Assembly (NCBI GenBank): GCA_009699205.1
Contig: WLOP01000004.1
Location: 49,212-113,211, forward strand
Direction of reading: 5' to 3'
DNA from: Actinomycetota bacterium
GTDB lineage: Bacteria > Actinomycetota > Actinomycetes > Nanopelagicales > Nanopelagicaceae
DNA: 64,000 bases
In this document: positions 1 through 37,121 of the stretch, in pieces
Layout of the letters: each line of letters starts with the position of its first letter
Position numbering within the stretch: the first letter of the stretch is position 1
Position numbers and translations under genes: made by a program
Notes under the pieces: generated by a model
The model's database searches: none
Told to the model about the DNA's origin: nothing
Seen by the model: the letters and a program-made list of their open reading frames with translations, nothing else

Positions 1-2161
1 TAGTTAATTGATGGAAGACAATGATGTCATCGATGCGGTTGAGGAACTCGGGACGGAAATGAGTCTTAAGTTCATCCCCAACCTTGGCCTTCATTCGCTC
101 ATAATTGCTCAATTCATCATCTGAATTAGCAAACCCGAGTCCTGCGCCTTTGGATATATCGCGAGTACCGAGGTTGGTAGTCATGATGATGACAGTGTTT
201 TTGAAATCCACAACGCGACCTTGTGCATCGGTGAGGCGTCCATCTTCAAGAACTTGAAGAAGTGAGTTGAAGATATCTGGGTGAGCTTTTTCGATTTCAT
301 CGAAGAGCACAACAGAGAATGGTTTGCGACGTACTTTCTCGGTCAACTGTCCGCCTTCGTCATATCCAACAAACCCTGGAGGTGCTCCAAATAGACGCGA
401 TGCTGTGTGGCGTTCGGAGTATTCAGACATATCTAATTGGATTAACGCATCGGCACTTCCAAAGAGGAATGCAGCCAAAGTGCGCGAGAGTTCGGTCTTA
501 CCAACACCTGATGGGCCAGCGAAAATAAATGAACCACCGGGGCGCTTAGGGTCTTTGAGCCCTGCGCGCGTACGACGAATCGCTTGTGAAAGCGCTTTAA
601 TCGCTTGATCTTGACCGATGACTCGGCGGTGCAATTCATCTTCCATACGGAGCAGACGCGCAGTCTCTTCTTCGGTCAACTTGAATACTGGAATTCCAGT
701 TGCGATTGAAAGTACTTCCGCAATGAGCTCTTCATCAACTTCGGTAACCATGTCGAGGTCGCCAGCTTTCCAAGTTTTTTCGCGCTCGGCTTTCTCAAGA
801 ATTAAGTTCTTTTCTGTATCGCGAAGAGCGGCTGCTTTCTCGAAATCTTGCCCATCAATTGCAGATTCCTTCTCCTTGCGGGCGGTTGCGATTTTTTCAT
901 CGAATTCGCGTAGCTCAGGAGGTGCGGTCATGCGACGGATACGAAGTCGTGATCCGGCTTCATCGATGAGGTCAATAGCTTTATCTGGCAGGAAGCGATC
1001 AGATACATAACGATCTGCCAAGGTTGCAGCAGAAACAAGTGCTGCATCGGAGATTGAAACTCGGTGATGGGTTTCGTAGCGATCGCGAAGACCTTTCAGA
1101 ATTTCAATAGTGTGAGCAAGAGATGGTTCTGCCACTTGAATTGGCTGGAAACGACGTTCTAGCGCAGCATCTTTTTCAAGGTGCTTGCGATATTCATCCA
1201 AAGTTGTAGCACCGATTGTCTGGAGCTCTCCACGAGCCAACATTGGTTTAAGAATGCTAGCTGCATCGATTGCGCCTTCAGCAGCGCCTGCGCCCACAAG
1301 GGTGTGAATTTCATCGATAAACAAGATGATGTCACCGCGTGTGCGGATCTCCTTCAAAACTTTCTTTAGGCGTTCTTCAAAATCTCCACGGTAACGACTT
1401 CCAGCAACAAGGGCGCCAAGATCAAGTGAGTAGAGCTGCTTATCCTTAAGGGTTTCAGGAACATCGCCCTTCACAATTGCTTGAGCAAGACCTTCAACAA
1501 CGGCTGTTTTACCAACACCTGGTTCGCCAATGAGCACTGGGTTATTTTTTGTACGGCGAGAAAGAACTTGCATCACACGTTCGATCTCTTTTTCGCGACC
1601 AATAACTGGATCTAACTTACCTTCACGTGCTGCTTGTGTGAGGTTGCGACCAAATTGATCAAGAACCAACGAGGTTGAAGGCGTACCTTCGGCTGGACCA
1701 CCAGTGGTGACAGTCTCTTTGCCTTGATAACCCGAAAGAAGTTGAATTACTTGTTGGCGAACGCGAGCAAGATCTGCGCCGAGTTTCATTAAGACTTGAG
1801 CGGCAACGCCTTCACCTTCGCGAATAAGGCCGAGCAAAATATGTTCTGTGCCAATGTAGTTGTGTCCCAGCTGCAACGCTTCGCGGAGAGAGAGTTCGAG
1901 AACTTTCTTTGCGCGTGGAGTAAAGGGAATGTGACCGCTTGGTGCTTGTTGTCCTTGGCCGATAATTTCTTCAACTTGCGAACGAACTGCCTCAAGTGAA
2001 ATTCCTAGCGATTCAAGAGCTTTTGCAGCAACGCCTTCACCTTCGTGTATCAGACCAAGGAGAATGTGCTCGGTGCCGATGTAATTGTGGTTGAGCATGC
2101 GTGCTTCTTCTTGAGCCAAGACAACAACTCGTCGGGCTCGGTCTGTAAAGCGCTCAAACAT
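1..2161 (-). CDS. clpC: ATP-dependent Clp protease ATP-binding subunit ClpC (5' part; C-terminus lies beyond window start)
   Basis: My own minus-strand translation from the ATG at 2161-2159 gives [37 protein letters not shown]..., with a duplicated Clp_N repeat. Walker [10 protein letters not shown] and a second GPSGVGKTE are present. The ORF runs off base 1, so it is missing from the ORF track. The + strand ORFs 319-1999 are antisense artefacts. Confidence 0.95.
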
Positions 2162-2298
2162 GTAGTACTCCTTCATCGACTAATCAGATAAGCCTAATGC
2201 CACGCGGGGTAAGCATGCGAGGCGAGGTTTGGTCCTGCCCTCTACAACCCTAGATATGGGCTTTTTATGCCCGTATGCCCCAGATATTGAGGAGCAGG

Positions 2299-2793
2299 TT
2301 AGAGGTGTTTGAGCATTCGGGTATTGCCCAAGGTGTTGGGTTTTACGCTCTCAAGATCGAGGAACTCAGCGATACCTGTGTCATATGAGTGGAGAAGTTG
2401 GCTATATACCTCAGGGTCCACAGGTGTTCCTTCAATTGCTTCGAAACCATGGCGCCCAAAAAACTCTGTTTCGAATGTCAGGCAGAAAATTCTCTTCACA
2501 CCAATAGCTCGAGCTCGATCAATAACTGCTTCGAGAATTTGGTGGCCAACGCCTTTGCCTCGCAAATGCTCAGCAACTGCAACGGTGCGAACTTCTGCTA
2601 GATCTTCCCAGAGAACATGGAGCGCGCCGCACCCAACGACCGCTCCATCTTCGATTGCAACTGTGAATTCCTGAACGCTTTCATAGAGCGTTACCGTTTC
2701 CTTCGAAAGCAAGCGACGTTGTGGTGCGTATGTATCAATAAGTTTGCGGATGCCTTTAATGTCAGTTGATTTTGCTGGCCTGATTTCTAGCAT
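2299..2793 (-). CDS. GNAT-family N-acetyltransferase (short ArgA-like amino-acid acetyltransferase type)
   Basis: 164 aa with the GNAT acetyl-CoA motif RGKGVGHQIL. Its size and layout resemble the short actinobacterial N-acetylglutamate-synthase-like enzymes. It lies 2 nt from the lysS stop. Confidence 0.7.
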   Translation of the reverse strand: MLEIRPAKSTDIKGIRKLIDTYAPQRRLLSKETVTLYESVQEFTVAIEDGAVVGCGALHVLWEDLAEVRTVAVAEHLRGKGVGHQILEAVIDRARAIGVKRIFCLTFETEFFGRHGFEAIEGTPVDPEVYSQLLHSYDTGIAEFLDLESVKPNTLGNTRMLKHL

Positions 2794-2795
2794 CG

Positions 2796-4298
2796 TTACT
2801 CAACCTCAGGCTTAACTAGCGGGAAGAGAATTGTTTCACGAATACCTAAACCAGTAAGCGCCATTAATAAGCGATCGACTCCCATACCGAGTCCACCCAT
2901 TGGGGGCATTCCAAATTCCATTGCACGTAAGAAATCTTCGTCAACGCTCATTGCTTCGACATCGCCCTTTGCACCCAAGCGCGCTTGCTCGACAAGACGT
3001 TCACGTTGAATAACCGGATCAATAAGTTCGGAATATCCTGTTGCCAACTCAAACCCATCTACATAGAGGTCCCACTTTTCTACAACGCCAGGGAGTTCGC
3101 GATGTGCCCTAACAAGTGGTGCATTGTCGATAGGGAAGCCCATAACAAATGTTGGTTCTGTTAACTTTCCAGCGGTCACATGTTCAAAAATCTCTTCGGC
3201 CAATTTGCCGGTGATCCAATTAGGATCCATTTTGATACCTAGTTTGGTGGCGATCTTCTTCAATTCTTCGTGTGGAGTAAGGGCCGTAACGCTCTCCCCT
3301 ACACCATCAGAAATTGCATCATAAAGAGAAATCTCTTTCCACGTTCCGCCGAGATCTGATTCGCGACCATCATGGTGCTTAGCCACATGAGACCCGAAGA
3401 TAGCCATGGAAGCGTTCTGAACTAAAGCGCGAGCAAGATCGGCTTTAGTTCGCCAATCTGCGTACGCTTCATAACTTTCAATCATCGCAAACTCTGGCGA
3501 ATGGCTTGAGTCCGCTCCTTCGTTTCGGAAGTTACGGTTAATCTCAAAGACTCGTTCGATTCCACCAACAACGCAACGCTTCAAGAAAAGTTCAGGCGCA
3601 ATCCGCAAGAAAAGTTCCATGTCATATGCATTGCTTAAAGTCTTAAAAGGTCGAGCTGCAGCGCCACCATGTTGAACTTGTAACATTGGTGTTTCGACTT
3701 CGAGATAGTCGCGTGAGTGGAAAGTTTCGCGCAAGGAACGCATAACGGCAGGGCGCATGCGAGCATTAGTTCGCGCTTCTGGCCGAACAATTAAATCTAC
3801 ATAGCGCATGCGAACTCGAGTCTCTTCAGACATCGGCTTGTGATCGTTTGGTAGTGGGCGTAGTGATTTTGCAGCGAGCTTCCAGCTATTAGCTAGAATT
3901 GAAAGCTCGCCTCGTTTAGAAGTGATGATCTCACCAGTCACGCTGACAATGTCACCTAAATCAATTTCGCTCTTCCAAGCATCTAGCGAAGTTTCGCCAA
4001 CTTTATCTAGCGAGAACATAGCTTGGAGTTCTGTGCCATCGCCTTCACGAAGCGTCGCAAAACATAACTTGCCTGTGTCGCGCTTGAAGATAATCCGACC
4101 AGTAAGGCTTTCGATATCCCCTGTTGCTACATCAATTTCTAGCGCTGCATATTTGCTGCGGACGTGCGAGAGAGAAGATGTGCGGGGGACAGAGACGGGA
4201 TATGGCTCAATACCTTGTTCGAGGAGCCCGGCACGCTTTTCGCGTCGGATGCGTAATTGCTCAGGTAGATCTTCGTCTGGGATTTCGTTCTCGGCCAT
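2796..4298 (-). CDS. lysS: lysine--tRNA ligase, class II
   Basis: 500 aa with an N-terminal OB anticodon-binding region. Class II motifs are present (..NRNFRNEGADSSHSPEF.., ..GGLGMGVDRLLMAL..). Confidence 0.95.
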   Translation of the reverse strand: MAENEIPDEDLPEQLRIRREKRAGLLEQGIEPYPVSVPRTSSLSHVRSKYAALEIDVATGDIESLTGRIIFKRDTGKLCFATLREGDGTELQAMFSLDKVGETSLDAWKSEIDLGDIVSVTGEIITSKRGELSILANSWKLAAKSLRPLPNDHKPMSEETRVRMRYVDLIVRPEARTNARMRPAVMRSLRETFHSRDYLEVETPMLQVQHGGAAARPFKTLSNAYDMELFLRIAPELFLKRCVVGGIERVFEINRNFRNEGADSSHSPEFAMIESYEAYADWRTKADLARALVQNASMAIFGSHVAKHHDGRESDLGGTWKEISLYDAISDGVGESVTALTPHEELKKIATKLGIKMDPNWITGKLAEEIFEHVTAGKLTEPTFVMGFPIDNAPLVRAHRELPGVVEKWDLYVDGFELATGYSELIDPVIQRERLVEQARLGAKGDVEAMSVDEDFLRAMEFGMPPMGGLGMGVDRLLMALTGLGIRETILFPLVKPEVE

Positions 4299-5086: not shown

Positions 5087-5947
5087 TTAGATCTCCGCCT
5101 TAAGGTCGAGTCCGATATCTAGAACTGGTGCTGAGTGTGTAAGAGCGCCAACTGCAAGAAAGTCAACGCCGGTTTCTGCATACTTCTTAGCGTTCTCTAG
5201 AGTGAGACCGCCTGAAGCTTCGAGCTTTACTTTTCCACCACTAAGGGAGACTGCTTGCTGGCACTGCTCTGGGCTCATATTGTCGAGCAGAATCAAATCT
5301 GGGTTAAGGGAAAGAGCCTCATTTAACTGTTCGAAGGTATCAACTTCGATTTCGATTTCGATATCTGGGTATTTTCCACGGACGCTGTTAAAAGCTTGAG
5401 TAACGCCACCTGCCGCTTCAACGTGATTGTCCTTAATTAACGCTGATTGGCTGAGGGAAAGTCGGTGGTTAGTTCCACCGCCCATGAGTACTGCGTATTT
5501 TTCAAGTTTGCGCAAACCAGGGGTTGTTTTGCGAGTATCCCTGATCTTCGTGGATGTCCCTGCGACTGCATCTACCCATGCACGCGTCAACGTTGCAATA
5601 CCGCTTAGATGAGAGAGGAAGTTCAGCGCAGTGCGTTCTGCAAGCAAGAGTGCGCGCGTATTTCCTCGGGCTCGCAAAATCACCGTTCCTGCTTCTACTT
5701 TAGATCCATCTCCTACCAAAATTTCGATATCTGTAATTCCCAAATATTCAAGAACTTCTTGTACGACACCGACTCCAGCTATGACTCCTGGTTTTCTGTT
5801 GATGAACTCTGCAACTACTTTTTCGTTTCCTGTAAGAGTTGCCATTGAGGTTACATCTTCTCCGCCAGCTAGATCTTCTGCTAATGCGGCTTTAATTAAC
5901 TCTGTGTACTGATTCAATTTGCCACCTCCTGCAGTGTTGAATTCCAT
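5087..5947 (-). CDS. nadC: nicotinate-nucleotide diphosphorylase (quinolinate phosphoribosyltransferase)
   Basis: The ORF is 5087-6022. The NadC-like sequence (ALAEDLAGGEDVTS.., LIKDNH) starts after the ATG at 5947 (MEFNT..), which gives about 286 aa. Either start overlaps the nadB 3' end. Confidence 0.85.
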   Translation of the reverse strand: MEFNTAGGGKLNQYTELIKAALAEDLAGGEDVTSMATLTGNEKVVAEFINRKPGVIAGVGVVQEVLEYLGITDIEILVGDGSKVEAGTVILRARGNTRALLLAERTALNFLSHLSGIATLTRAWVDAVAGTSTKIRDTRKTTPGLRKLEKYAVLMGGGTNHRLSLSQSALIKDNHVEAAGGVTQAFNSVRGKYPDIEIEIEVDTFEQLNEALSLNPDLILLDNMSPEQCQQAVSLSGGKVKLEASGGLTLENAKKYAETGVDFLAVGALTHSAPVLDIGLDLKAEI

Positions 5948-7524
5948 GTCCCATCCTTTTCCAGATGTTGCAAAATTCGTTTGCTCCACTGAGGAGAGGT
6001 TTCGGGGAAGTCTTCGCGCCAATGAGAGCCGCGTGTTTCTTCTCTCTCAAGAGCTGAACGAACAATCGCTTGTGCTAGTTGTAGAAGATTGCTTGTTTCC
6101 CAAGCTTCGACACATGGGTTTGTACTAGTGCTTGTTGCAACAATTGCCAATTCTTTTTCGGTCTCTTCTAAAGAATGGGCCGAGCGCAATACACCGGCTC
6201 CACGGCTCATGCTCGATTGCAAATGTTTACGTGCTTGTGGCTCTATAAGAAACGATGAATCTACTTCATGAATTGGCTCTGTAAATTCCGGAAGGTTCTT
6301 TGCAATATCAGCTGCGATTCGAGCGCTAAAGACCAAGCCTTCAAGAAGTGAATTGGAGGCCAATCGATTAGCGCCATGGACTCCAGAACATGCAGTTTCA
6401 CCACAGGCATAAAGTCCTTTCACGCTTGTATGTCCGTTGAGGTCAACCCTTGCACCACCGGATGCATAGTGTGAAGCGGGCGCTACCGGTATCAAATCTC
6501 TCAGCGGATCTATTCCATGCGCCAAACATGAAGCGTAAATAGTTGGGAATCGATCAGTAAATCCTTCGATGTGGCGAACATCGAGCCAGACATGATGTGC
6601 ACCTGTTTCATTCATGCGACGCATGATTGCAATTGCTACAACATCTCGTGGAGCAAGCTCGGCCAAAGGATGCAGTCCCACCATAAATCTTTCACCTGCG
6701 TCGTCTAACAGGTATGCACCTTCTCCTCGCACCGCTTCGCTAATGAGTGGTTGCTGCCCCTTTGAGCCATCGCCTAACCAGAGCACGGTCGGATGGAATT
6801 GGATGAATTCAACATCAGCAACTTGCGCACCCGCGCGCAAGGCGAGAGCGACTCCATCGCCCGTGGAAACTGGCGGATTTGTTGTTTGTGCGAAAACTTG
6901 TCCTAATCCCCCAGTAGCAAGTACAACTGCGCGACCAATCGCTTGACCTACCCCATCACGTGTTCCTGCCCCAATAACGTGGAGAGTCACTCCACAAACT
7001 GCACCGCTTTCGTTCTTGAGTGCATCTAATACAAGTGCGTGCTCGACTACTTCAATATCTGGATCATTACGAACGGCAGCAAGGAGCGCACGCGAAACTT
7101 CTGCACCAGTTGCATCTCCTCCTGCATGCAGAATTCGATTGCGCAGGTGTCCACCTTCTCGCGTTAAAGCAATCTCGCCAGTGGCTTCTTTATCAAAAAC
7201 TGCGCCTCTTGCAATGAGTTTTCGTACGGCTTCTGGCCCTTCTGAAACTAAAACTTTGACTGCATCAAAATCACAGAGCCCTGCACCTGCAACAAGGGTG
7301 TCTTTCTCATGCTGATCCGGAGAATCGCCTGGCCCTAGCGCCGCTGCGATACCGCCTTGTGCCCATTTAGTAGAGCCCGCATCTACCCGAGCTTTAGTAA
7401 CAAGCAGAACCGAAAGTCCGAAGGTTCGAATTTGAAGTGCAGTTGTTAATCCCGCAACTCCCGATCCAACAACAATCACATCGGCACGAGCAGTCCAACC
7501 CGGCTTAGGGGCAAGAAGTTTCAT
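5914..7524 (-). CDS. nadB: L-aspartate oxidase
   Basis: 536 aa with an N-terminal FAD dinucleotide fold (DVIVVGSGVAGL). It has the succinate dehydrogenase/fumarate reductase flavoprotein-like core and the C-terminal ..ETRGSHWREDFP.. segment. Confidence 0.93.
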   Translation of the reverse strand: MKLLAPKPGWTARADVIVVGSGVAGLTTALQIRTFGLSVLLVTKARVDAGSTKWAQGGIAAALGPGDSPDQHEKDTLVAGAGLCDFDAVKVLVSEGPEAVRKLIARGAVFDKEATGEIALTREGGHLRNRILHAGGDATGAEVSRALLAAVRNDPDIEVVEHALVLDALKNESGAVCGVTLHVIGAGTRDGVGQAIGRAVVLATGGLGQVFAQTTNPPVSTGDGVALALRAGAQVADVEFIQFHPTVLWLGDGSKGQQPLISEAVRGEGAYLLDDAGERFMVGLHPLAELAPRDVVAIAIMRRMNETGAHHVWLDVRHIEGFTDRFPTIYASCLAHGIDPLRDLIPVAPASHYASGGARVDLNGHTSVKGLYACGETACSGVHGANRLASNSLLEGLVFSARIAADIAKNLPEFTEPIHEVDSSFLIEPQARKHLQSSMSRGAGVLRSAHSLEETEKELAIVATSTSTNPCVEAWETSNLLQLAQAIVRSALEREETRGSHWREDFPETSPQWSKRILQHLEKDGTWNSTLQEVAN

Positions 7525-27517: not shown

Positions 27518-29394
27518 GACTGTGCCTTTCCATAACCATAAGGATCAGATGTAATAACAGGCAACGTTTCAAAGTTCTCTAGAGGAACTGGGTTTGCAAC
27601 AGTCCATTCGAGAGTCTTTGCTTGCCAAGGGTTCATCGGTGCTTTAACACCACTTCGCCATGAGGAGATAACTCCATGGAGTAGGACGAGCATGCCCGCC
27701 ATAATTGTGTATGCACCTATCGTGGTGACAAGGTTTCCCTTATTGAAGATTTCAGCATATGACTCGACACGTCGAGGTTGTCCTGCAAGGCCAACCATAA
27801 ACATGCCCATGAAGGCAACGTTGAAACCAATCTGGACGAGCCAGAAAGAAACCCAGCTAAGAGTCTTATCAAACATGCGACCAGTCATCTTTGGGAACCA
27901 GTAGACCAATGATGCAAGGGCGCCAGTTAAACCTGCACCCATCAAGGTGTAATGGAAGTGCGCGGTGACATACATTGAACCGTGCAAGAAAGCATCAGCG
28001 GGCACATCCGAAAGATAAATTCCAGTGATTCCGCCAATCATGAAGTTCCACAAGAGCGCAAAGATTGACATCAAAGGCATTGTCATCCAGAGACGGCCAC
28101 GCCAAAGTGTTCCGATGAGCACCAAGAACAACATTCCTGTTGGGATGGAGATTAATTCGGTGGTCAACATAAATGGTGCGTTAAGTAATGGTGCCCATCC
28201 GCTGATATACATATGGTGCGCCCAGACAAGTACTGAAAGCCCAGAGATGCCAGCGATACCCATAATCGCTAAGTTGAAGCTAAAGAGTGGGCGACGTGTA
28301 AAGACTGGCGCCATCTCCATAAGTGCTGCAACAGAAGGAATAAGGATTACATAAACTTCAGGATGACCCATAATCCAAAAGAGGTTCTCGTAGAGCCAAC
28401 CACTTCCGCCACCGGCAACGTTGTAAAACGAAGTTGCAAATGCGCGATCTAGTCCAGACATAATCTGGGATAAGAAGAAGACTGGGAATGCGGGAAGAGC
28501 TAGCGCTACAGAAGCAACGACACCGTAGATAAAGATTGGTGTGCGATTCCAGGTCATACCCTTTGCGCGCATCTTCACGACAGTTGTAGTGATATTCGCT
28601 CCAGCAACCATTGTCGAGATTGCGAATATACAGATAAATGCGATGTAACCATTCATGCCTAGCGCAGATTGAGAAGCCAACGGGTTATAGGCGGACCATC
28701 CGGTAGTGATTCCCCCTGTGAAGAAGGAGATAAATACTGGTGGCACTGCAGCAACAATCAACCAGAAGCTCAACGCGTTAAGGCGAGGGAAGGCCATATC
28801 GCGAGCGCCGATCATGATCGGCATAATGAAGTTTCCGAATGGTCCGGTGACCATGATAATTGTTGCGACAATCATGATAATTCCATGCCAGCCAACAATT
28901 GCGTTATACGTCTGAGGTTCAATCCAGCCGCCTTGGGCATGGCCCAAGTTGGTGCGAATGAGCATGGCAAGAATTCCGCCGACAAGGAAGATAATAATTG
29001 TGATCACTAAGTATTGGATTCCAACAACTTTGTGGTCAGTTGTGTAGCGGAAATATCTCTTTACGCCTTGCTCTTTACCAGCTAAGAACATGTTCTCGTC
29101 ATGGTTGAGGTCTTTGCCCATTAGCCAGCGGAACGGGCCAATGAGAGCACCAATGCCGGTCATAAATCCGACAAACCAGGCGATCAATGCAAGCAACATA
29201 ATTTTGTCTTCGCGGTTAAAGAAGAAAGCAGTATCTGCATCCTGTGGAAGCAACTTAAGCGCAAGTTGCCAAACGACAACAGAACTTACTGCACCAAGAA
29301 CTAGAGCGGTGACAATATTTAATCTTTCGATTAAAGGTTTTCTACTTGCGGTGTGTCCCGCAGATGCTGCTGGGCGATCCATCACTGTTGTCAT
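27514..29394 (-). CDS. ctaD: cytochrome c oxidase subunit I (A1-type)
   Basis: 626 aa carrying all six canonical His ligands (..GWHGIIMI.., GHPEVYVILIP, WAHHMY, TAHFHYTLMG). The Glu and Tyr of the GHPEVY motif are retained. Confidence 0.95.
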   Translation of the reverse strand: MTTVMDRPAASAGHTASRKPLIERLNIVTALVLGAVSSVVVWQLALKLLPQDADTAFFFNREDKIMLLALIAWFVGFMTGIGALIGPFRWLMGKDLNHDENMFLAGKEQGVKRYFRYTTDHKVVGIQYLVITIIIFLVGGILAMLIRTNLGHAQGGWIEPQTYNAIVGWHGIIMIVATIIMVTGPFGNFIMPIMIGARDMAFPRLNALSFWLIVAAVPPVFISFFTGGITTGWSAYNPLASQSALGMNGYIAFICIFAISTMVAGANITTTVVKMRAKGMTWNRTPIFIYGVVASVALALPAFPVFFLSQIMSGLDRAFATSFYNVAGGGSGWLYENLFWIMGHPEVYVILIPSVAALMEMAPVFTRRPLFSFNLAIMGIAGISGLSVLVWAHHMYISGWAPLLNAPFMLTTELISIPTGMLFLVLIGTLWRGRLWMTMPLMSIFALLWNFMIGGITGIYLSDVPADAFLHGSMYVTAHFHYTLMGAGLTGALASLVYWFPKMTGRMFDKTLSWVSFWLVQIGFNVAFMGMFMVGLAGQPRRVESYAEIFNKGNLVTTIGAYTIMAGMLVLLHGVISSWRSGVKAPMNPWQAKTLEWTVANPVPLENFETLPVITSDPYGYGKAQS

Positions 29395-30170
29395 TAGGCA
29401 GCTCCTTCAATCGTAGATTTAGCAGTAAGCCAAGCGTCGTAATCTGCCTGGCTCAATACATGCACCTTTGTCTGCATATACGCGTGGAGCAACCCGCAAA
29501 GTTCGGCGCATCGAATATCAAAGACGCCAATCTTGTTTGGGGTAACAGCGGTCTCTGTGACATAGCCAGGATTTGCATCCATCTTGATTCCCATTTGCAC
29601 AATCCAAAATGAGTGCTTCACATCAACTGATGTCACGTGAAATACCACTGGCTTATCAACTGGTAGATAAAGATCAGCGCTGCGAACACCATTGCTTTCA
29701 ACGTAATCAAAGTTCCAGACCCATTGCTGGCCGGTGACATTAACGTTCATGGCGGTTGCATCGAGGATAGATTCATTATCTTTCTGCAAAACAACGAGCC
29801 CTGTGATGAGGGCGAAGAGGCAGAGAAGAGTTGAAACAACTACCCACGTCGAAGCTACACGAGGACTATTGGAAATCTGGTGGTCAGCTTCTGCTGGCGG
29901 ATTATCACCATAGTGGCGTTTACCTGAAAGTGAAGTGAGCGCAAGAGCTGCTACTAGAGCTGCGACTGGCGATGCTGCCCAAGTAAAGACACCCATCAAA
30001 GTCTTCACTGATGCCATTACTTCAGATGCAGGGGCACCGATTGAGCGAAGTTGCACTGTCGTTCCGACATATCCAATTATTGGAGTAAGGATTAACCAAA
30101 GGAGGAAAGTTTTTTTGACATCGGATTTCTTCCACCATTTGGTGGTTTGAGGAGTCTGAAGGTTTGTCAT
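29394..30170 (-). CDS. ctaC: cytochrome c oxidase subunit II (CuA)
   Basis: 258 aa with TM segments followed by a cupredoxin domain. The CuA ligands are HSFW ... CAELCGLLHAYM. Confidence 0.93.
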   Translation of the reverse strand: MTNLQTPQTTKWWKKSDVKKTFLLWLILTPIIGYVGTTVQLRSIGAPASEVMASVKTLMGVFTWAASPVAALVAALALTSLSGKRHYGDNPPAEADHQISNSPRVASTWVVVSTLLCLFALITGLVVLQKDNESILDATAMNVNVTGQQWVWNFDYVESNGVRSADLYLPVDKPVVFHVTSVDVKHSFWIVQMGIKMDANPGYVTETAVTPNKIGVFDIRCAELCGLLHAYMQTKVHVLSQADYDAWLTAKSTIEGAA

Positions 30171-30181
30171 TTCGCGCCCCC

Positions 30182-30868
30182 TTATGAATTCACGACGTTG
30201 AAGTGGCCGGACATGTAACCCATGCTTGACATCGCGTTGCCGAATTTAGCAACAGTGCCATCGCCACATGGATATTCGCAGTTCCAGACATACTCGCCTG
30301 CATCACCAGTGATCACTGTAAAGACAGTCACGTTTGGTGTGGCGGTATAACCCTCTTCCGGCATATCTTCTTCTGCTACTGCTTGCATTGGAACGCTAAA
30401 GAAAAGCTCGCTCTGCTTGCTTGCGATTCCATGCACGGTAAATGTGTGGCCAACATGATCAGGAGCAACATTTGTTATGGTTACTCCGTTCAGTGTTGCC
30501 GTTCCGCCAATTGTTCCGCGGACCTTTCCAAAGAAATCGTTATTCAAAGTTTCGCCACCGTCATAGTTTGAAACGGTGATGGTGATGGCCGAATGCGCTG
30601 GGACTTCAAAGTTAGTAACCGGCCCGTAGCTCACCCATCCAGGATGTCCGCCACCAGTACCGTGGCCGCCAAACATCGCATCTGGATATACAGACATATC
30701 TAAGGTGTAGTGGGGCAGCGTGCCTTGCGGAGTTTCCATAGTTCCCGCTGCTGTAGCTGCAAGCACTCGTGAATCATTCTTTGCAGATGCGACATATGTG
30801 CCGATGCCAGCGATTGCCGCTGCGCCAAGAATGACAGTTCCGAGTGCGGCGAATAACCGCTTATTCAT
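30182..30868 (-). CDS. membrane-anchored/secreted cupredoxin-like protein with variant ligand loop
   Basis: The probable start is the ATG at 30868 (MNKRLFAALGTVILGAAAIAG.. anchor). It has a VGHTFTVHG strand and a C-terminal YVWNCEYPCGDG..MSSMGYMSGHFNVV. That tail resembles the cupredoxin Y-x-x-C-x-x-P-H...M-x-G loop, but with C-x3-C-G. It is the first gene of the oxidase operon. Confidence 0.5.
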   Translation of the reverse strand: MNKRLFAALGTVILGAAAIAGIGTYVASAKNDSRVLAATAAGTMETPQGTLPHYTLDMSVYPDAMFGGHGTGGGHPGWVSYGPVTNFEVPAHSAITITVSNYDGGETLNNDFFGKVRGTIGGTATLNGVTITNVAPDHVGHTFTVHGIASKQSELFFSVPMQAVAEEDMPEEGYTATPNVTVFTVITGDAGEYVWNCEYPCGDGTVAKFGNAMSSMGYMSGHFNVVNS

Positions 30869-30961
30869 TTGACCCCCAGTAGTGAGCCACGCCACAGAGG
30901 CGCGCTTAACTTCGCAAGGGTAAGGGCTACTTCCAAGTATTCCAAGCCTATTCTCAGCCTT

Positions 30962-30983: not shown

Positions 30984-31064
30984 GAGCCTGAGGTTGTCTT
31001 GCGCCTGCGCCTCTTCTACCGATTGCGCCAGAGGGCTAACCTGCTCACCTATGAGTCACATATG

Positions 31065-31844
31065 GATATGAGCCATGGAGCTAATTTCTGGGCGAGTTGG
31101 CAACTCGCCCCAGAGATCACTGCCCCGCTCCTATTAATTGAATACCTCTATTTACGTTTTGCCCACGCTCACATCCCCCATAGCGATCCCATCGCCCAGC
31201 GCCAACGCCGCTTTTTTCTTGCTGGCCTTACCTCAATCGCCTTAGTAGTCATCACTCCAATTGGTGTTTTCTCGGGTCAATATTTCTGGTGCCATATGGT
31301 TCAGCACGTTACCTTGATGATGATCTCGGGGCCGTTGCTTGTCTTGGGCACGCCTTCTAATTTTCACCCTAAGAATCTGCTTTTCAAAACATTAACCCGC
31401 CCCGTTGTGAGTTGGCTCGTTTATGCGACGCTAATGATCGGCGTGCATCTTCCATTGCCGCACGTCTACATCATGGAACGACCTTGGTTACATAACTACG
31501 TAGAAATTCCAGCGTATTTTATTGTCGCTTACCTTTTCTATTTCAACCTTCTCGATCGCAATTTAGTTGGTAGGCGAATCTCGCCCGCATTTGCAGTCAT
31601 CTCACTATTTCTTATGATGGTTCCTGAAACTCTGACAGGATTCTTTATCTACGCTTCCCCTAAATCGCTTTACCAAAATATGTTCACACTCAGCGACCAA
31701 CAACGTGGTGGATCAATCATGTGGTCGGGTGGAATGATTATTGATGCAGTATGGATTGCATTTGCGGTGCATCATTGGCTAAAAAGTGAAGAACGCCGAT
31801 CGAAAGAAATTGACGCAGAGATTGCCGCTGATGAGCAACGATAA
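31065..31844 (+). CDS. ctaG: cytochrome c oxidase assembly protein (Caa3_CtaG family)
   Basis: It is a polytopic membrane protein with ..YFWCHMVQHVTLMMISGPLLVLGTP.., typical of the Caa3_CtaG family. The ORF starts at 30999 (TTG), but the ATG at 31065 (MDMSHGANFW) is more plausible. Confidence 0.75.
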   Translation, partial: DMSHGANFWASWQLAPEITAPLLLIEYLYLRFAHAHIPHSDPIAQRQRRFFLAGLTSIALVVITPIGVFSGQYFWCHMVQHVTLMMISGPLLVLGTPSNFHPKNLLFKTLTRPVVSWLVYATLMIGVHLPLPHVYIMERPWLHNYVEIPAYFIVAYLFYFNLLDRNLVGRRISPAFAVISLFLMMVPETLTGFFIYASPKSLYQNMFTLSDQQRGGSIMWSGGMIIDAVWIAFAVHHWLKSEERRSKEIDAEIAADEQR

Positions 31845-32181
31845 ACCAGAAAAGAAATTCGAGGCACCGCAGTGGGTGTTAGATGAAAACAATCCAGATC
31901 TTCCCGAACCATCTGCTGAAGTAAGCAAAAAACAGCGGATAGTGCTTGTAATAACGCTGATATTCGTCTTTCCATTTTGTATGTGGGCTGGCTGGTTCGA
32001 ATTCGGCAGAGCTCAAAGTGGGAATTGGCGTGCATGGGTTTACACATTCGAATGGCCATTCTTTGGTGGGATTGCAATTTATCTATTCAGACGACTTATG
32101 CGCGGCGATGTTCCAAAAATTCCTCGTCCAGATCTAGATGCGCTGGCACGAGCCCAAGATGAAGAGGCTAGTGAAAAGTAA
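31831..32181 (+). CDS. small two-TM membrane protein, unknown function
   Basis: The ATG at 31831 (MSNDKPEKK..) overlaps the ctaG stop by 14 nt. The protein has two hydrophobic segments and charged termini. Confidence 0.5.
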   Translation: MSNDKPEKKFEAPQWVLDENNPDLPEPSAEVSKKQRIVLVITLIFVFPFCMWAGWFEFGRAQSGNWRAWVYTFEWPFFGGIAIYLFRRLMRGDVPKIPRPDLDALARAQDEEASEK

Positions 32182-33436
32182 ACCAGAGCATGCAACTTAC
32201 GCAGATTCCCACCATTGCGATGATGAGCGCATAAACGCTTTGCATACGTGCAGAGGCTTTAAATTCACCCATAAGGCGCTTATCTCTAGCAATGCCAAAC
32301 ATGTAACAAAGTAGCGGAAGCAATAACACCGCATTAAGTACTTGAGTCCAGAGCAAAATCGTAATCAACGGAGCGCCAGGCAAAAGAATTAAACCGGCGC
32401 TAATAATCGTGATTGCGGCAAAAGTTCCGTAGAAAAGAGGGGCTTCTTTAAAGTGATCATCTAGGGCCGCAGGGCGCCCTGTTAAATCGCTCACTGAATA
32501 TGCAGTCGATAAAGGCAAAATTGAAGCTGCTAACAGCGCCGCACCAATAAGTCCGATTGCAAATAGCTCTTTAGCGAGCGTTCCAGCAAGTGGCTCGAGT
32601 GCCTGAGCGGCTTGAGATGCATCTGTAATGCTAAATATTCCTTGATGGTTAAGGGTTGCTGCGCAAGTAACAACTACAAAGAAACCGATCACACCAGTTA
32701 GCAACGAACCCGTCCAAACATCAACACGCAAAAGTCGCAAATCATCGCGGGTGAGACGTTTATCAACTGCATAGGACTGAATGAATGCAAGCCCCCATGG
32801 CGCCAAAGTAGTACCAAGAGTTGCTGTTGCTAGGAAGATTGCGTCGTGATCAAAGGGCATCGAAGGTACAACCATGCCGTGTAAGGCCTGGCCCCAATCT
32901 GGATGCGCCAAGAAGCCAGCAAGAATGTAAGAAAGAAATACTGCAGAGAGAAGGAAGAACACTTTCTCAACTCTTCCGAAAGATCCGCGAAGCACTAAGA
33001 AAGTAACAAGGAGTGCTCCGATAGGAACTGAAACGTATTTAGATATTCCGAATAGCTGTCCTGCTGCGGCAATGCCAGCAAACTCTGCTGTCATAGTTCC
33101 AATGTTTGCAAGAATTAATGACGATGCGCTAAAAACACCAGAGCGTGCACCATATTTTTGGCGAACTAAACCAATAAGTCCTTGGCGGGTGACAACGCCA
33201 ATGCGCGCGCCGAGATCTTGAAAAAGAATCAGCGCCAAAGTGGAGAGCACTAAGACCCAGAGAAGTCGGTACCCATATTTAGCGCCGAGTTGCGAATAAG
33301 TGGTAATGCCCGCTGGGTCATCATCTGAAAGTCCGGCAATGATTCCTGGACCCATCACTGCAAGAAGTGCTGCTAAACGAATCTTGCGGTGTGAAATTAC
33401 GGGCGCCTTACTTGGCGCCTTCTTTAGATCGCTCAT
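32168..33436 (-). CDS. NRAMP-fold divalent cation transporter with NRMT-like (Mg-type) binding-site substitutions
   Basis: 422 aa. TM1 reads GPGIIAGLSDDDPAGITTY (DPAG in place of DPGN). TM6 reads GTTLAPWGLAF (LAPW in place of (A/V)MPH). Confidence 0.8.
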   Translation of the reverse strand: MSDLKKAPSKAPVISHRKIRLAALLAVMGPGIIAGLSDDDPAGITTYSQLGAKYGYRLLWVLVLSTLALILFQDLGARIGVVTRQGLIGLVRQKYGARSGVFSASSLILANIGTMTAEFAGIAAAGQLFGISKYVSVPIGALLVTFLVLRGSFGRVEKVFFLLSAVFLSYILAGFLAHPDWGQALHGMVVPSMPFDHDAIFLATATLGTTLAPWGLAFIQSYAVDKRLTRDDLRLLRVDVWTGSLLTGVIGFFVVVTCAATLNHQGIFSITDASQAAQALEPLAGTLAKELFAIGLIGAALLAASILPLSTAYSVSDLTGRPAALDDHFKEAPLFYGTFAAITIISAGLILLPGAPLITILLWTQVLNAVLLLPLLCYMFGIARDKRLMGEFKASARMQSVYALIIAMVGICVSCMLWFTFH

Positions 33437-34773
33437 GCCAGCGCACCGCTTCCTTGAGCAAAGCCCCGGCGTCCAGTGCGCGCGACAAGTGCATCCACCA
33501 AGTCATCGGCCATGATTCGACCCACTGGTTTATTAGATTCATCAACAATCACAATTGAAGAACCTCTGTTATTTGAGAACTCTTCAATGACCTCATCCAG
33601 CGGTGTATCGATATTCACCGCCATGGGCAATGGGGCCCCGATTAAAGTGCTCAAAAGTGCGCTTGATTTCGCTGAAACTAGTTCGATCATTTGAATGTGA
33701 TCGAGTAATTTGCCCTTTGAATCAACGACGACAACGCCATCGGAGATATCACGTTCTCGATTTTCAACTAGAAGTTTAAGAGCGGCTCCGACAGTATCTG
33801 TTTCACGCGCGATGACCATATGTGTTGTCATAACACCACCAGCAAGTGTTTCGTCGAATGAAACAAGTGTGCGAAGAGCTTTTGCAGTTTCTTTCGCCAT
33901 TGCGCTCAAAATAGATTCGCGGTGTTCTTCATCCAAATCACGCAATACTTCTGCTGACTCATCTGGTTCCATGCGTACTATTAATTCGGCAGCGCGATCA
34001 GCAGATAAACCACGAAGTAAGCCAAGCAAATCTTCGTCTTCCATTTCTTCCAAAACGTCGGCCGCGAGATCTGGATCAAGTAATTCGATAAGCGCACCCT
34101 GTTCGCGACCTACTAAATCTTCAATCAAGTCAGCTAAGTCGGCGGGACGCAATTGGCTCAACGCAGAACGTGGACCCGCAGTGCGCACTTGTCCAGTGCT
34201 ATCGGTAAGAGAAGCAACGCTCGCCCAGTCAACTACGCGATCTGGTGTGGGGCGACGGCGAATTGTGCCGGGGAATACTCGGCGCAAAAATGAAACGAAA
34301 GATACATCCACGCCGACAAGGCGGATTTCTCGATCAAGAGGTGCTAAGTAAAGATCGGCAGAGCGGACAACACGCAAACCATTAACATCAACAATTTGGT
34401 GATCAATAACGTCGGCATCGAGCAGTGATTCTCCGGGACGTCGTGTGTATTCGCGCAAATTAACTTTTGTTGAAGAAAGTCGGATTTCGCTTTTTGTTAA
34501 TTTCGAAATGCGAGCGCCATCGATAAATGATTTGCGAGCGCCAACTTTTACAATGAGCCCAGACACCGCTGGATATGTTTCTTCACCGTGACGAACAACA
34601 ATGTCAACAAGTTTTCCTAAATCGCGTCCGTCGTTGTCACGAACCGGACGACCAATAAGGCCAGCAACTGATACAAGTGATTCACGGATATTTTTACGTG
34701 CCAAGACCGATTCCCCGCGAGTAACCAGACGCTTTGCTCGCACAGCAACAGTGGTAATAGGTTTGGCTTTCAC
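33433..34773 (-). CDS. soluble PRC-barrel / MgtE-N / CBS-pair protein (no membrane pore domain)
   Basis: 446 aa with a GTG start. An N-terminal PRC-barrel-like region is followed by an acidic MgtE_N helical bundle (..DPDLAADVLEEMEDEDLLGLLRGL..) and two CBS motifs. There are no TM segments. An ATGA overlap joins it to the transporter gene. Confidence 0.8.
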   Translation of the reverse strand: MKAKPITTVAVRAKRLVTRGESVLARKNIRESLVSVAGLIGRPVRDNDGRDLGKLVDIVVRHGEETYPAVSGLIVKVGARKSFIDGARISKLTKSEIRLSSTKVNLREYTRRPGESLLDADVIDHQIVDVNGLRVVRSADLYLAPLDREIRLVGVDVSFVSFLRRVFPGTIRRRPTPDRVVDWASVASLTDSTGQVRTAGPRSALSQLRPADLADLIEDLVGREQGALIELLDPDLAADVLEEMEDEDLLGLLRGLSADRAAELIVRMEPDESAEVLRDLDEEHRESILSAMAKETAKALRTLVSFDETLAGGVMTTHMVIARETDTVGAALKLLVENRERDISDGVVVVDSKGKLLDHIQMIELVSAKSSALLSTLIGAPLPMAVNIDTPLDEVIEEFSNNRGSSIVIVDESNKPVGRIMADDLVDALVARTGRRGFAQGSGALA

Positions 34774-34925
34774 GCGCTGATTTTAGCCGTCGGGTGGTGG
34801 TAAATGGCGCTAATAATCCAAGGTAGACTTGCCCACGTTGCTTCACCCGAAGCAGTGATCACTTCCCCCAAAGTGCAGCAAATGCCGCACTTACTTGCGA
34901 GTCTTATCACCACCTGACAGGCCCA
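34774..34925 (-). promoter_or_regulatory. structured 5' leader (candidate metal-sensing riboswitch-like element)
   Basis: A closing helix GGUGGUG/CACCACC (34908-34914 with 34793-34799) encloses at least two hairpins, at 34873-34890 and 34839-34854. The first contains a G-U pair that exists only on the minus-strand RNA. The closing helix ends 19 nt before the GTG start. Confidence 0.35.
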
Positions 34926-35045
34926 GCACGACCGGATTGCATTGAATGCAAACCAGCACGACCGCTAGTTGAAGAGATAACTAGCCCGCAACAATTGGCC
35001 AGTCATACCGAGACGCGCTTGTCGTCTCGATTGGTGTCTTAAAAC

Positions 35046-37121
35046 ATGTCCGTGCAACCACGCTCAAAATCCGCTGCGCCTAAACGCGTCAAATCTGACA
35101 AGCCTGCTCGTCGAGGCACAGCAGCAAAAACCTTTTCTCGCGATCGCGAAGAATCAGCAACAGCTGCGCCAGCTAAATCCACGTGGATTAAAGGCACACC
35201 TAAAGCTGGCAAGCTAACAGGTAAAACAACTGCTCGCGCAGGAAGCAAAGCTCCAGCGCGCAAACCAAAACCTTCTGCAACAACTCCTGCAAAGCGCGCC
35301 AAGAACAGCGCACGTTCGATTGATCGCGCCAAGCGTTTTGCTGATACTCGTGGCCCTTCAATAATTCGTACACCTCGTGCCGAGGCAACAGAAACAACGC
35401 CAACAACGCCAACAACGCGTCCAACAAGATTCACACCAGCTCGTCGCGTCGATACACGAGTTGATACTCGTAATGACACGCGTCCAACTACTCGTCGCGA
35501 TGCACGGATTGCTGAAGTTGCCCGCGGAGATGGTCGACCAAACTTTGAACCAAAAAAGCGCACCAAATTTATCCCCGGTGGAAAACGCACAGGCGCACCT
35601 GCAGCCCGCACTTCGACCCGAAGTGCGCACACAGGAATCGCAACGCCTCATAAGGGCTCAACATTTCGTCCAAGTCCTTCACGCAATACAGATCATGTTC
35701 GTGAAAATAATTCTGGTCCACGTTCACATAACGGTCGCGGTTCAGCTAACAATTACTCAAATAGCCAATATGTTGAAGATTTCGGCGCCGATGACAACTA
35801 CATCAACGATGTAGAACAGGAGACCACTGAGGTCGCGCTACATCACAAACCAACTGAAGGTACCGGCAAGACTTGGACCGAACTTGGTATTGCACCAGCA
35901 CTTGTACAGGCGCTCACAGCGCAAGGAATTACTGCACCATTTCCTATTCAAGTTGCCACACTTCCTGATGCACTTAAAGGTCATGACATCTTGGGACGCG
36001 GACAAACAGGATCAGGTAAGACACTTGCATTCGGTCTTGCGCTTCTGACTAATCTCGAAGGTAAACAAGCAGCGCCACATCGCCCACTTGGATTGATTCT
36101 TACCCCAACACGCGAATTAGCACTGCAGATCAACGATGTAATCACGCCTCTTGCGCGTGCAATACGTCTTGATTCTGTTGTTATTGCAGGTGGAATGCCC
36201 TACGCAAAACAGATCACTGCAATGCGCAAGAGCTGCCCAATCCTTGTTGCTACACCTGGTCGCTTGATCGACTTGCTTGATAAGGGCGAAGTACAGCTTG
36301 ATGATCTACAAATCACCATTCTTGATGAAGCCGATCAAATGGCTGACATGGGATTCTTACCAGTGGTTAAGGAAATTCTTGATCAAGCTCGACCAAATGG
36401 CCAGCGTTTGCTTTTCAGTGCAACTCTTGATCGCGGCGTTGATTCTCTTGTCAAAAAATATCTCAATAATCCAAAGACTCACTCGCTACAGAACGATCGC
36501 GCTTCAGTAAGCACAATGGAGCACCATGTTCTTGTGATGCACCCAGGTGACAAGGACGAGATCACTGCTCAAATCGCAGCTCGCGATGGCCGCACAATCT
36601 TGTTCGTGAAAACACAACGTGGAGCAGATCGTCTTGCTGACAAACTTGCCAGCGTTGGTGTAGCCGTCGGTGCACTACACGGTGGAAAATCACAAGCAGT
36701 TCGAACCCGCACCCTTGCACATTTCAAGGCAAGTGAAACTGCAGCCCTTGTTGCAACAGATGTTGCGGCGCGTGGTATCCATGTTGATGGAATCTCATTG
36801 GTTGTGCACGTTGATGCACCAACCGATCACAAGGATTATTTGCACCGCGCTGGTCGAACAGCTCGTGCCGGAGAAGCAGGCGTTGTTGTAACGCTCGCAA
36901 CTTCTAAGCAACAGAGCGCTGTTCGTGGCTTAACATCACGAGCTGGGGTATTTCCTAAGTTTGTTGATGTACGTCCACACCATGCAGAGTTGGTATCAAT
37001 CACTGGCTCTAAAGAGCCAAGCGGAATTGCATACATCGCTCCTGTGATGGCTAGCGATGGACCTCGCCGCACTGGCAAGCCACGTCCTCGCAGTGATCAG
37101 CGTCGCCGTCGCCCAAGATAG
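35046..37121 (+). CDS. DEAD-box ATP-dependent RNA helicase with ~275-aa basic low-complexity N-terminal extension
   Basis: It has the Q-motif region ..FPIQ, motif I GRGQTGSGKT, DEAD (LDEADQM), SAT (FSATL) and motif VI HRAGRTARAG. The N-terminal extension has no internal Met, so the start is uncertain. Confidence 0.85.
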   Translation: MSVQPRSKSAAPKRVKSDKPARRGTAAKTFSRDREESATAAPAKSTWIKGTPKAGKLTGKTTARAGSKAPARKPKPSATTPAKRAKNSARSIDRAKRFADTRGPSIIRTPRAEATETTPTTPTTRPTRFTPARRVDTRVDTRNDTRPTTRRDARIAEVARGDGRPNFEPKKRTKFIPGGKRTGAPAARTSTRSAHTGIATPHKGSTFRPSPSRNTDHVRENNSGPRSHNGRGSANNYSNSQYVEDFGADDNYINDVEQETTEVALHHKPTEGTGKTWTELGIAPALVQALTAQGITAPFPIQVATLPDALKGHDILGRGQTGSGKTLAFGLALLTNLEGKQAAPHRPLGLILTPTRELALQINDVITPLARAIRLDSVVIAGGMPYAKQITAMRKSCPILVATPGRLIDLLDKGEVQLDDLQITILDEADQMADMGFLPVVKEILDQARPNGQRLLFSATLDRGVDSLVKKYLNNPKTHSLQNDRASVSTMEHHVLVMHPGDKDEITAQIAARDGRTILFVKTQRGADRLADKLASVGVAVGALHGGKSQAVRTRTLAHFKASETAALVATDVAARGIHVDGISLVVHVDAPTDHKDYLHRAGRTARAGEAGVVVTLATSKQQSAVRGLTSRAGVFPKFVDVRPHHAELVSITGSKEPSGIAYIAPVMASDGPRRTGKPRPRSDQRRRRPR

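Follow-up and report, generated by a model that had tools for sequence, protein, structure and literature searches.

Examination of a 64,000-nucleotide (nt) stretch of DNA from an Actinomycetota bacterium of the family Nanopelagicaceae (GenBank assembly GCA_009699205.1, contig WLOP01000004.1, positions 49,212 to 113,211; hereafter the window) reveals a pair of overlapping genes that are predicted to encode a carrier of the NRAMP-related Mg2+ transporter (NRMT) clade and, directly upstream of it, a soluble partner protein composed of two tandem PRC barrels, an MgtE N domain, a CBS pair and a basic tail. In this freshwater actinobacterium of the Nanopelagicaceae type the locus is an ordinary new example of a two-gene arrangement that has been on record since 2014, and nothing in it is categorically new. 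What is added here is the tandem duplication of the PRC barrel, the existence of partners that lack the CBS pair and of a Solirubrobacterales clade that lacks the partner altogether, an account of which Mg2+ sites the partner has kept and which it has lost, and a locus that has no M-box and is probably leaderless. The interpretation that we favour, with modest confidence, is that the partner is a translationally coupled cytosolic ancillary subunit that gives the NRMT carrier feedback by Mg2+.

Of the systems by which bacteria take up Mg2+, the NRMTs are understood least. The structure of one of them, EleNRMT of Eggerthella lenta, has been solved; this carrier appears to be uncoupled (its transport is H+-independent; PMC8806188; PMC9606685), and a carrier of this kind would, without control, overload the cell with Mg2+. 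The partner accompanies most NRMTs, EleNRMT included.

Two overlapping genes

The pair consists of a 446-amino-acid (aa) open reading frame (ORF) with a GTG start followed by a 422-aa ORF with an ATG start, both on the minus strand of the window:

33433..34773, minus strand: partner gene, 446-aa soluble protein (PRC barrel twice, MgtE_N, CBS pair, basic tail), from the ORF and Pfam
32168..33436, minus strand: NRMT-type NRAMP carrier gene, 422 aa, from Pfam, the match to the Protein Data Bank (PDB) and NCBIfam
33433..33436, minus strand: ATGA, stop of the partner gene overlapping the start of the carrier gene, read directly from the sequence

The GTG start of the partner gene lies at 34773 and its TGA stop at 33435-33433. 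The junction reads ctCATgcc on the plus strand and GGC-ATGA-GCG on the minus strand, and so bears out the first-pass annotation of this DNA, which had the carrier ATG overlapping the stop of the 446-aa protein at this position. The ATGA overlap suggests that translation of the partner and of the carrier may be coupled.

Placement of the carrier

The carrier matches the Pfam Nramp family (PF01566, 1.1e-86) almost end to end, with residues 44-395 covering profile positions 1-356 of 357. Its placement within the family rests on the gap in E-values, on model cut-offs and on signature residues at the metal site, two stretches of which are located as follows:

33308..33319, minus strand: helix-1 motif D40-P-A-G43 (DxxG; DPGN in Mn/Fe NRAMPs), from the sequence, with the signature taken from PMC8806188
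32795..32812, minus strand: helix-6 motif T209-T-L-A212-P-W214 (TxxA; Trp for His), from the sequence, aligned with G-T-T-I-A-P-W of EleNRMT

First, in a comparison with all PDB sequences the best match is EleNRMT (7QIA) at E=1.8e-90, and for the Mn2+/Fe2+ NRAMPs, DMT1, NRAMP1 and the Al3+ transporter of plants the E-values are 3e-24 or weaker, of the order of 1e-24 for MntH and DraNramp. Second, the NCBIfam MntH model (NF001923) gives the carrier 134.4 bits, far below its cut-off of 430. Third, the carrier has neither DPGN nor A-x-x-M-P-H; DPAG and T-T-L-A-P-W stand in those places and agree with the binding-site signature reported for NRMTs, DxxG in helix 1 and TxxA/T in helix 6 (Ramanadane et al. 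2022, eLife, PMC8806188). In EleNRMT the residues Thr224, Gly58, Asp55 and Gln379 matter, and both histidines of helix 6b are replaced (PMC8806188). The equivalents of the EleNRMT site residues in the carrier are D40, G43, T209, A212 and Q365; W214 and I219 occupy both of the helix-6b histidine positions, and E118 in helix 3 and Q365 in helix 10 are kept. The sequence G-T-T-x-[AT]-P-W is invariant in all 80 related NRMT loci of the survey described below.

By these sequence criteria the carrier is an NRMT-clade NRAMP and not an MntH. The first-pass annotation had read D40-P-A-G in place of DPGN and TTLAPW in place of (A/V)MPH, and had assigned the carrier to the Mg-type, NRAMP-related group; the motif reading is correct and the assignment agrees with all three lines of evidence. 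A grouping with the Mn2+ transporter MntH, which would have spoken against that assignment, was not found, the nearest relative by E-value, model cut-off and signature being EleNRMT.

Domain organisation of the partner

The partner can be divided into an N-terminal portion of about 200 residues, a C-terminal portion of about 250 residues that resembles the cytosolic part of the MgtE channel, and a short tail:

34438..34686, minus strand: PRC-barrel-like domain 1, about residues 30-112, from a Pfam match below cut-off and AlphaFold2 beta strands 43-99
34186..34437, minus strand: PRC-barrel-like domain 2, about residues 113-196, from hhalign and AlphaFold2 beta strands 115-188
33850..34152, minus strand: MgtE N domain, residues 208-308, with D271, E272 and E275, from Pfam and HMMER mapping
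33484..33831, minus strand: CBS pair, about residues 315-430, with D342, D423, D424 and D427, from Pfam and HMMER mapping
33436..33483, minus strand: basic C-terminal tail, residues 431-446, ARTGRRGFAQGSGALA, from the HMMER alignment with TtMgtE

The MgtE-like character of the C-terminal portion is evident from several comparisons. Pfam places MgtE_N at residues 208-308 (3.6e-23) and CBS domains in two stretches (7.7e-14), and finds no MgtE pore domain (PF01769) in the protein. The C-terminal 250 residues match MgtE cytosolic domains (Thermus thermophilus 2yvy, E=1.1e-15), and the TIGR00400 mgtE model, whose cut-off is 232.75 bits, is matched with 85.1 bits and over model positions 24-252 only. 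Just 22 residues follow D424, the equivalent of TtMgtE D247, and the protein has no hydrophobic segment of transmembrane strength, the maximum 19-residue Kyte-Doolittle mean being 1.34 compared with 2.39 in the carrier. An AlphaFold2 model built with a 101-sequence alignment has a pLDDT of 88.9 and a pTM of 0.81 (prediction from the single sequence gave a pLDDT of 39.9, and it is the alignment-based model that is used here), and its top Foldseek matches are the MgtE cytoplasmic domains of four species (TM(target) 0.84-0.91, rmsd 1.7-2.2 Å). Pfam, Foldseek and hydropathy thus agree with the earlier description of a soluble 446-aa protein with an MgtE N domain and a CBS pair and without a pore.

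In the N-terminal portion the Pfam PRC family (PF05239) matches residues 39-78 with 18.7 bits, under the gathering score of 21.2, and among the top 50 Foldseek matches of the whole model there are MgtE and CBS proteins only and no PRC fold, in a search that is dominated by the MgtE part. In aligned relatives of the partner, PRC is above cut-off at about 28-44 bits, on either the first or the second barrel (the E. lenta partner scores 42.8 bits, relatives of about 600 aa 43-44 bits), and in two partners (loci L077 and L025) the match falls on the second barrel. Moreover, when the family sub-alignments of residues 30-112 and 113-196 are compared by hhalign they emerge as homologues of each other (probability 92.6%, E=4.6e-7), and the N-terminal 200 residues are all-beta in the model. 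Because PRC passes its cut-off in relatives, matches the second barrel in two of them, and the two halves are homologous, the N-terminal part is best described as two tandem PRC barrels, the product of a duplication, and not as one; the PRC barrel of the first-pass annotation therefore stands as to its kind and falls as to its number.

Mg2+ sites retained and lost

The Mg2+ sites of MgtE, as defined in PMC10200709, were mapped onto the partner through HMMER alignments to TtMgtE and ChMgtE, and their conservation was scored over 101 family members. D271, E272 and E275 in the N domain correspond to TtMgtE D91, D92 and D95 and are acidic in 85-97% of the family; D423, D424 and D427 at the end of the CBS pair correspond to D246, D247 and D250 and are acidic in 84-92%; and D342 corresponds to E166, with 62% acidic. 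For the ChMgtE Mg4/5/7 cluster, which lies at the interface of the N domain, the CBS pair and the plug helix, five of the seven ligands are kept in the partner (D271, E272, D342, D424 and D427). In MgtE it is this acidic N/CBS cluster that brings about closure when Mg2+ is high (PMC10200709). The place of the acidic plug helix and the pore of MgtE is taken in the partner by the basic tail. These correspondences suggest that a Mg2+-dependent clamp between N domain and CBS pair has plausibly been retained, and that the part which couples it to the pore has been replaced by something else.

Distribution of the gene pair

The pairing was followed in both directions. In a forward survey, the best 80 NRMT loci, mostly from Actinomycetota, were taken from 185,579 species genomes and all of their ORFs were searched with profiles. 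The partner is present directly upstream and on the same strand in 56 of these 80 actinobacterial-type loci, and in 29 it is a full partner with PRC, N and CBS domains. Loci with a full partner come from Nanopelagicaceae, Propionibacteriales, Cellulomonas, an Acidimicrobiaceae and a Thermoleophilaceae, and also from metagenome-assembled genomes (MAGs) labelled Patescibacteria, Gammaproteobacteria and Armatimonadota. The partner and carrier genes overlap by 4 or 1 nt in every one of the 20 Nanopelagicaceae-like loci (L001-L020). A PRC+MgtE_N+CBS gene is likewise directly upstream in 77 of 80 gut-metagenome loci that code for EleNRMT-like proteins. In the reverse direction, starting from ten distant pore-less relatives of the partner (24-39% identity), an NRMT-type gene is adjacent in nine, in varied orders and orientations. 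The co-occurrence of pore-less MgtE_N genes with NRMT genes is therefore seen in all three surveys, and the pair, on whose conservation the original proposal had been made to depend, is widespread across genomes.

The partner belongs to a large family: 318 representative clusters match at E<=1e-30, and at E<=1e-3 the number rises to 6544. Of the best 150 representatives some ten are proteins of about 600 aa, and four of the six that were scanned keep the MgtE pore domain. It was expected that such pore-bearing PRC-MgtE relatives would not be paired with an NRMT, and locus L174 contradicts this: at 611-3389 it has a 599-aa PRC+MgtE_N+CBS protein with a pore, followed after 17 nt by an NRMT gene (DNDAGG, GTTVTPW). 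This arrangement may represent either an intermediate stage in evolution or an operon for two transporters.

Expression signals upstream of the pair

A search of the window with Rfam at the gathering threshold returned no family except a tRNA, and hence no M-box, and when the region 34600-35300 was scanned at E<=10 there was again no M-box and only a single chance-level match to a viral pseudoknot. A riboswitch scan of 30 diverse related loci found none. Scanning of 31900-35200 for sigma-70 promoters and terminators gave nothing above the shuffled expectation. One candidate promoter element lies close to the partner start:

34780..34785, minus strand: -10-like hexamer TAAAAT, 6 nt before the GTG, from the upstream alignment; candidate promoter

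A TAnnnT sequence 6-7 nt before the partner start is also present in L001, L002, L005, L006, L008, L009, L011, L013, L014, L016, L018 and L020, the comparison being confined to loci in which the sequence on the upstream side extends as far as the start codon (L010 and L019 have gaps at this point and are not assessable). No conserved 5′ leader was found; the intergenic sequence is held in common only with L002, and the other relatives have a different upstream gene. The position of the hexamer suggests that the operon transcript is probably leaderless, which would leave no room for a riboswitch.

Between the partner gene and the divergent DEAD-box helicase gene, at 34923-34964, there are on the minus strand two copies of the direct repeat CGGTCGTGCTGG, one on either side of the palindrome TTGCATTCAATGCAA. 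The stretch is deleted in L002, the closest relative with the same neighbour, and is thus not conserved.

A possible role in feedback regulation

The pairing itself has been described before. According to Shin et al. (2014, PLoS Genet), who reported on such loci, an 'MgtE-like fragment' is encoded ahead of most nrmT genes; they noted that the two are often co-transcribed behind an M-box, and that the fragment might serve in 'cytoplasmic feedback regulation of transport' or as a metal chaperone. PRC barrels are not mentioned in that paper, the partner is not mentioned in the 2022 paper on the structure of EleNRMT (Ramanadane et al. 2022), and a literature search found no later paper on the partner and none on a PRC barrel together with MgtE. 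The statement of the first-pass annotation that the partnership had not been characterised is thus correct as to function and incorrect as to gene context, which was reported in 2014, and gating in trans is a plausible hypothesis that already existed.

In the reading that we favour, the carrier would have the LeuT fold with an enlarged site devoid of the Met and Asn ligands and, by analogy with EleNRMT, would import Mg2+ (and Mn2+) without proton coupling. The partner would be its cytosolic ancillary subunit, i.e. the 'MgtE-like fragment' of Shin et al. (2014). It may dimerise through its CBS pairs, as MgtE does, and sense cytosolic Mg2+ through the N/CBS clamp; the closed, Mg2+-bound form would then dock on the cytoplasmic face of the carrier and restrain uptake, so that an uncoupled carrier would gain the kind of negative feedback that is inherent in MgtE and CorA. 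Given that the locus has no M-box and that its mRNA is probably leaderless, control at the protein level would, if so, be the main Mg2+-responsive control at the locus.

A more specific version of this proposal, which we put forward tentatively and regard as somewhat short of probable, is that the PRC-PRC-MgtE_N-CBS protein is a detachable sensor of Mg2+ and acts in trans to gate an unrelated carrier of the LeuT fold, with the tandem PRC barrels and the basic tail forming the docking element. If true, this would be the first case in which the regulatory module of MgtE has been put to new use as a soluble subunit in another superfamily of transporters, and the published structures and kinetics of NRMTs would apply to no more than the half of the native complex that lacks regulation. 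Docking through the PRC barrels and tail would also explain why partners of the Mycobacterium type keep the PRC and N domains and drop the CBS pair.

Several features weigh against feedback by the partner. First, NRMTs can do without it: EleNRMT and the Clostridium acetobutylicum NrmT both transport in its absence (Shin et al. 2014; PMC8806188), and in the sole test of a pair, co-expression of Acp2976 with the carrier Acp2977 of Acidobacterium capsulatum 'did not further improve rescue' (Shin et al. 2014). Second, in 27 of the 80 forward-survey loci, from Mycobacterium and others, the partner is CBS-less, with a length of about 280-300 aa; it stops after the N domain, and Pfam finds PRC and MgtE_N only (L024, L026-L031, L033-L041, L044, L045, L047, L051, L055, L057, L070, L071, L073, L075 and L080). 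Third, 24 of the 80 loci have no partner; in 21 of these, which have at least 1.5 kb of upstream sequence and are mostly from Solirubrobacterales/Conexibacter, about 6 kb to each side is free of any partner-like ORF (L042, L043, L046, L048, L050, L052, L053, L056, L058-L067, L074, L076 and L079), and the carriers of the partner-less Solirubrobacterales clade keep the full DDDPAG / GTTLAPW signature. Fourth, the converse also occurs, in that the pore-less PRC+MgtE_N+CBS gene P0165 (L082-L084, GCA_016183425.1) has no Nramp gene within 4 kb. (The P0165 gene is preceded by a 145-aa ORF without a Pfam match.)

Fifth, not all of the Mg2+ sites of MgtE have survived. The ChMgtE ligands E201 and D204, which the CBS domain of the neighbouring subunit contributes to the cluster, are S400 and R403 in the partner, and the plug-helix sites Mg2 and Mg3 are absent, TtMgtE E255, E258 and D259 being replaced by R432, R435 and R436 (in 66% of the family R or K is found at position 435). 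Sixth, although the distance matrices of partner and carrier are correlated (r=0.86, 0 of 2000 permutations in a Mantel test), this shows co-inheritance and not contact and is expected for any co-inherited neighbours. One Microthrixaceae MAG (L031) carries, at 453-3095 and 5099-7224, two tandem NRMT systems with different partner types, one a full partner with an NRMT paralogue 36% identical to the window carrier and the other a CBS-less partner with an NRMT 62% identical. Similarity to the window pair is discordant between partner and carrier in the two systems, so that partner and carrier lineages can evidently be re-assorted. Finally, neither the best 150 representatives nor some 175 loci yielded a fusion of partner and carrier; ORFs of 700 aa in high-GC loci that were considered as fusions are longest-ORF artefacts in overlapping frames.

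The CBS-less partners, the partner-less clades and the pore-bearing relatives next to NRMTs constitute natural 'experiments' on the function of the partner.

Alternative explanations

Four other explanations of the pair can be considered. The one that survives best, although we think it unlikely, is that the system is mainly a manganese importer, with a carrier that prefers Mn2+ in vivo and a partner that responds to Mn2+ or to some other signal. Acp2977, the only riboswitch-less, partner-associated NrmT to have been tested, behaved as a Mn2+ transporter, giving full rescue of a Mn2+-uptake mutant and rescuing Mg2+ uptake only at millimolar Mg2+ (Shin et al. 2014). The A. capsulatum locus is without an M-box (Shin et al. 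2014), as is the window, and because its carrier behaved in this way a riboswitch-less pair may be Mn2+-preferring. EleNRMT also transports Mn2+; however, its T224A mutant loses Mg2+ transport (PMC8806188), and the equivalent threonine, T209, is kept in the window carrier along with the whole DxxG/TxxA site. The partner, too, keeps the acidic cluster that binds Mg2+ in MgtE.

Less probable again is that the partner is a positive factor, which might help the carrier to assemble or to remain stable, serve as a metal chaperone, or activate the carrier, perhaps by sensing adenine nucleotides through its CBS pair. Among the Foldseek matches of the partner are CBS proteins with ATP or AMP bound; adenine nucleotides are common ligands of CBS pairs, and ATP modulates MgtE. 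The persistence of variants with PRC and N domains only suggests that the core role of the partner may be docking and not sensing, 'metal chaperone activity' is the alternative offered by Shin et al. (2014), and EleNRMT on its own was unstable in detergent and needed consensus mutations (PMC8806188). A partner needed for stability or activity is nonetheless difficult to reconcile with NRMTs that are active without it in heterologous hosts and in liposomes, and the cluster conserved between its N and CBS domains is the one whose effect in MgtE is to close the channel.

That the partner is independent of the carrier, a general sensor of Mg2+ or nucleotides that is merely co-transcribed as a legacy of an ancestral mgtE-nrmT pair, appears improbable. 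As a pore-bearing protein adjoins an NRMT gene in L174, the linkage of partner and NRMT may predate loss of the pore, and the occurrence of P0165 without a nearby NRMT and of many NRMTs without a partner would fit two proteins with separate roles. Against this, the adjacency is tight and widespread (nine of ten in the reverse survey), includes start/stop overlap, and extends across phyla and down to about 25% identity, and the pore-less soluble remnant has been kept under selection in the 318 representative clusters noted above. The last alternative, that the upstream ORF is a decaying and functionless mgtE remnant, has the missing pore domain in its favour and is effectively refuted by conservation: the frame is intact, the model is confident (pLDDT 88.9), the family has hundreds of clusters, and both the key residues and the overlap with the carrier start are conserved.

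Neighbouring genes

On the downstream side of the pair a 131-aa ORF without a Pfam match (31786-32181, plus strand) is convergent with the carrier gene, 14 nt at whose 3′ end it shares; as it extends over the end of the CtaG ORF too, it is uncertain whether it is real. A 237-aa ORF without a Pfam match (30182-30895, minus strand) is flanked by the gene for cytochrome oxidase subunit II (29394-30170) and the gene for the caa3 assembly factor CtaG (30999-31844). Its product has a C-terminal C-x-x-x-C...M pattern (NCEYPCG...MSSMGYM), which we take to resemble a CuA/cupredoxin site. Upstream of the pair is the gene for a DEAD-box helicase (35046-37121, plus strand), whose core begins at about residue 300 and is preceded by a basic, low-complexity N-terminal extension of about 290 aa.

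Comparison with known systems

The closest characterised relative of the window carrier is EleNRMT (E. lenta, PDB 7QIA), of the same clade and 41% identical over the full length. The two share the DxxG...TxxA signature with its Thr, the helix-3 Glu, the helix-10 Gln and the loss of the His pair, and both genes are preceded by one for a PRC+MgtE_N+CBS protein. They differ in helix 1, which has D-D-D-P-A-G in the window carrier and G-N-D-A-G-G in EleNRMT, and at the second helix-6b position, where Ile is found in place of Asn. The gene order is also the same as in C. acetobutylicum (Ca_c0685) and A. capsulatum (Acp2976/Acp2977), with a gene for MgtE cytoplasmic domains directly upstream of nrmT, although the partner is split in C. 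acetobutylicum and is a single 446-aa gene in the window. The M-box is missing in the window as it is in A. capsulatum, unlike many NrmT operons, and is therefore not a defining feature.

The partner shares with the MgtE channel (T. thermophilus, PDB 2YVX/2ZY9) the fold of the N domain and CBS pair and the acidic residues at their interface; it differs in having no transmembrane pore, in having a basic tail instead of the acidic plug helix, and in the addition of two N-terminal PRC barrels. Among its nearest pore-bearing relatives are metagenomic PRC-bearing MgtE channels of about 600 aa (such as P0171 and P0178), which align over partner residues 36-430 and keep the PF01769 pore that the window partner lacks. 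MntH, DraNramp and ScaDMT have PF01566, the LeuT fold and the metal-binding Asp of helix 1 in common with the window carrier, but their PDB matches to it are some 65 orders of magnitude weaker than that of EleNRMT.

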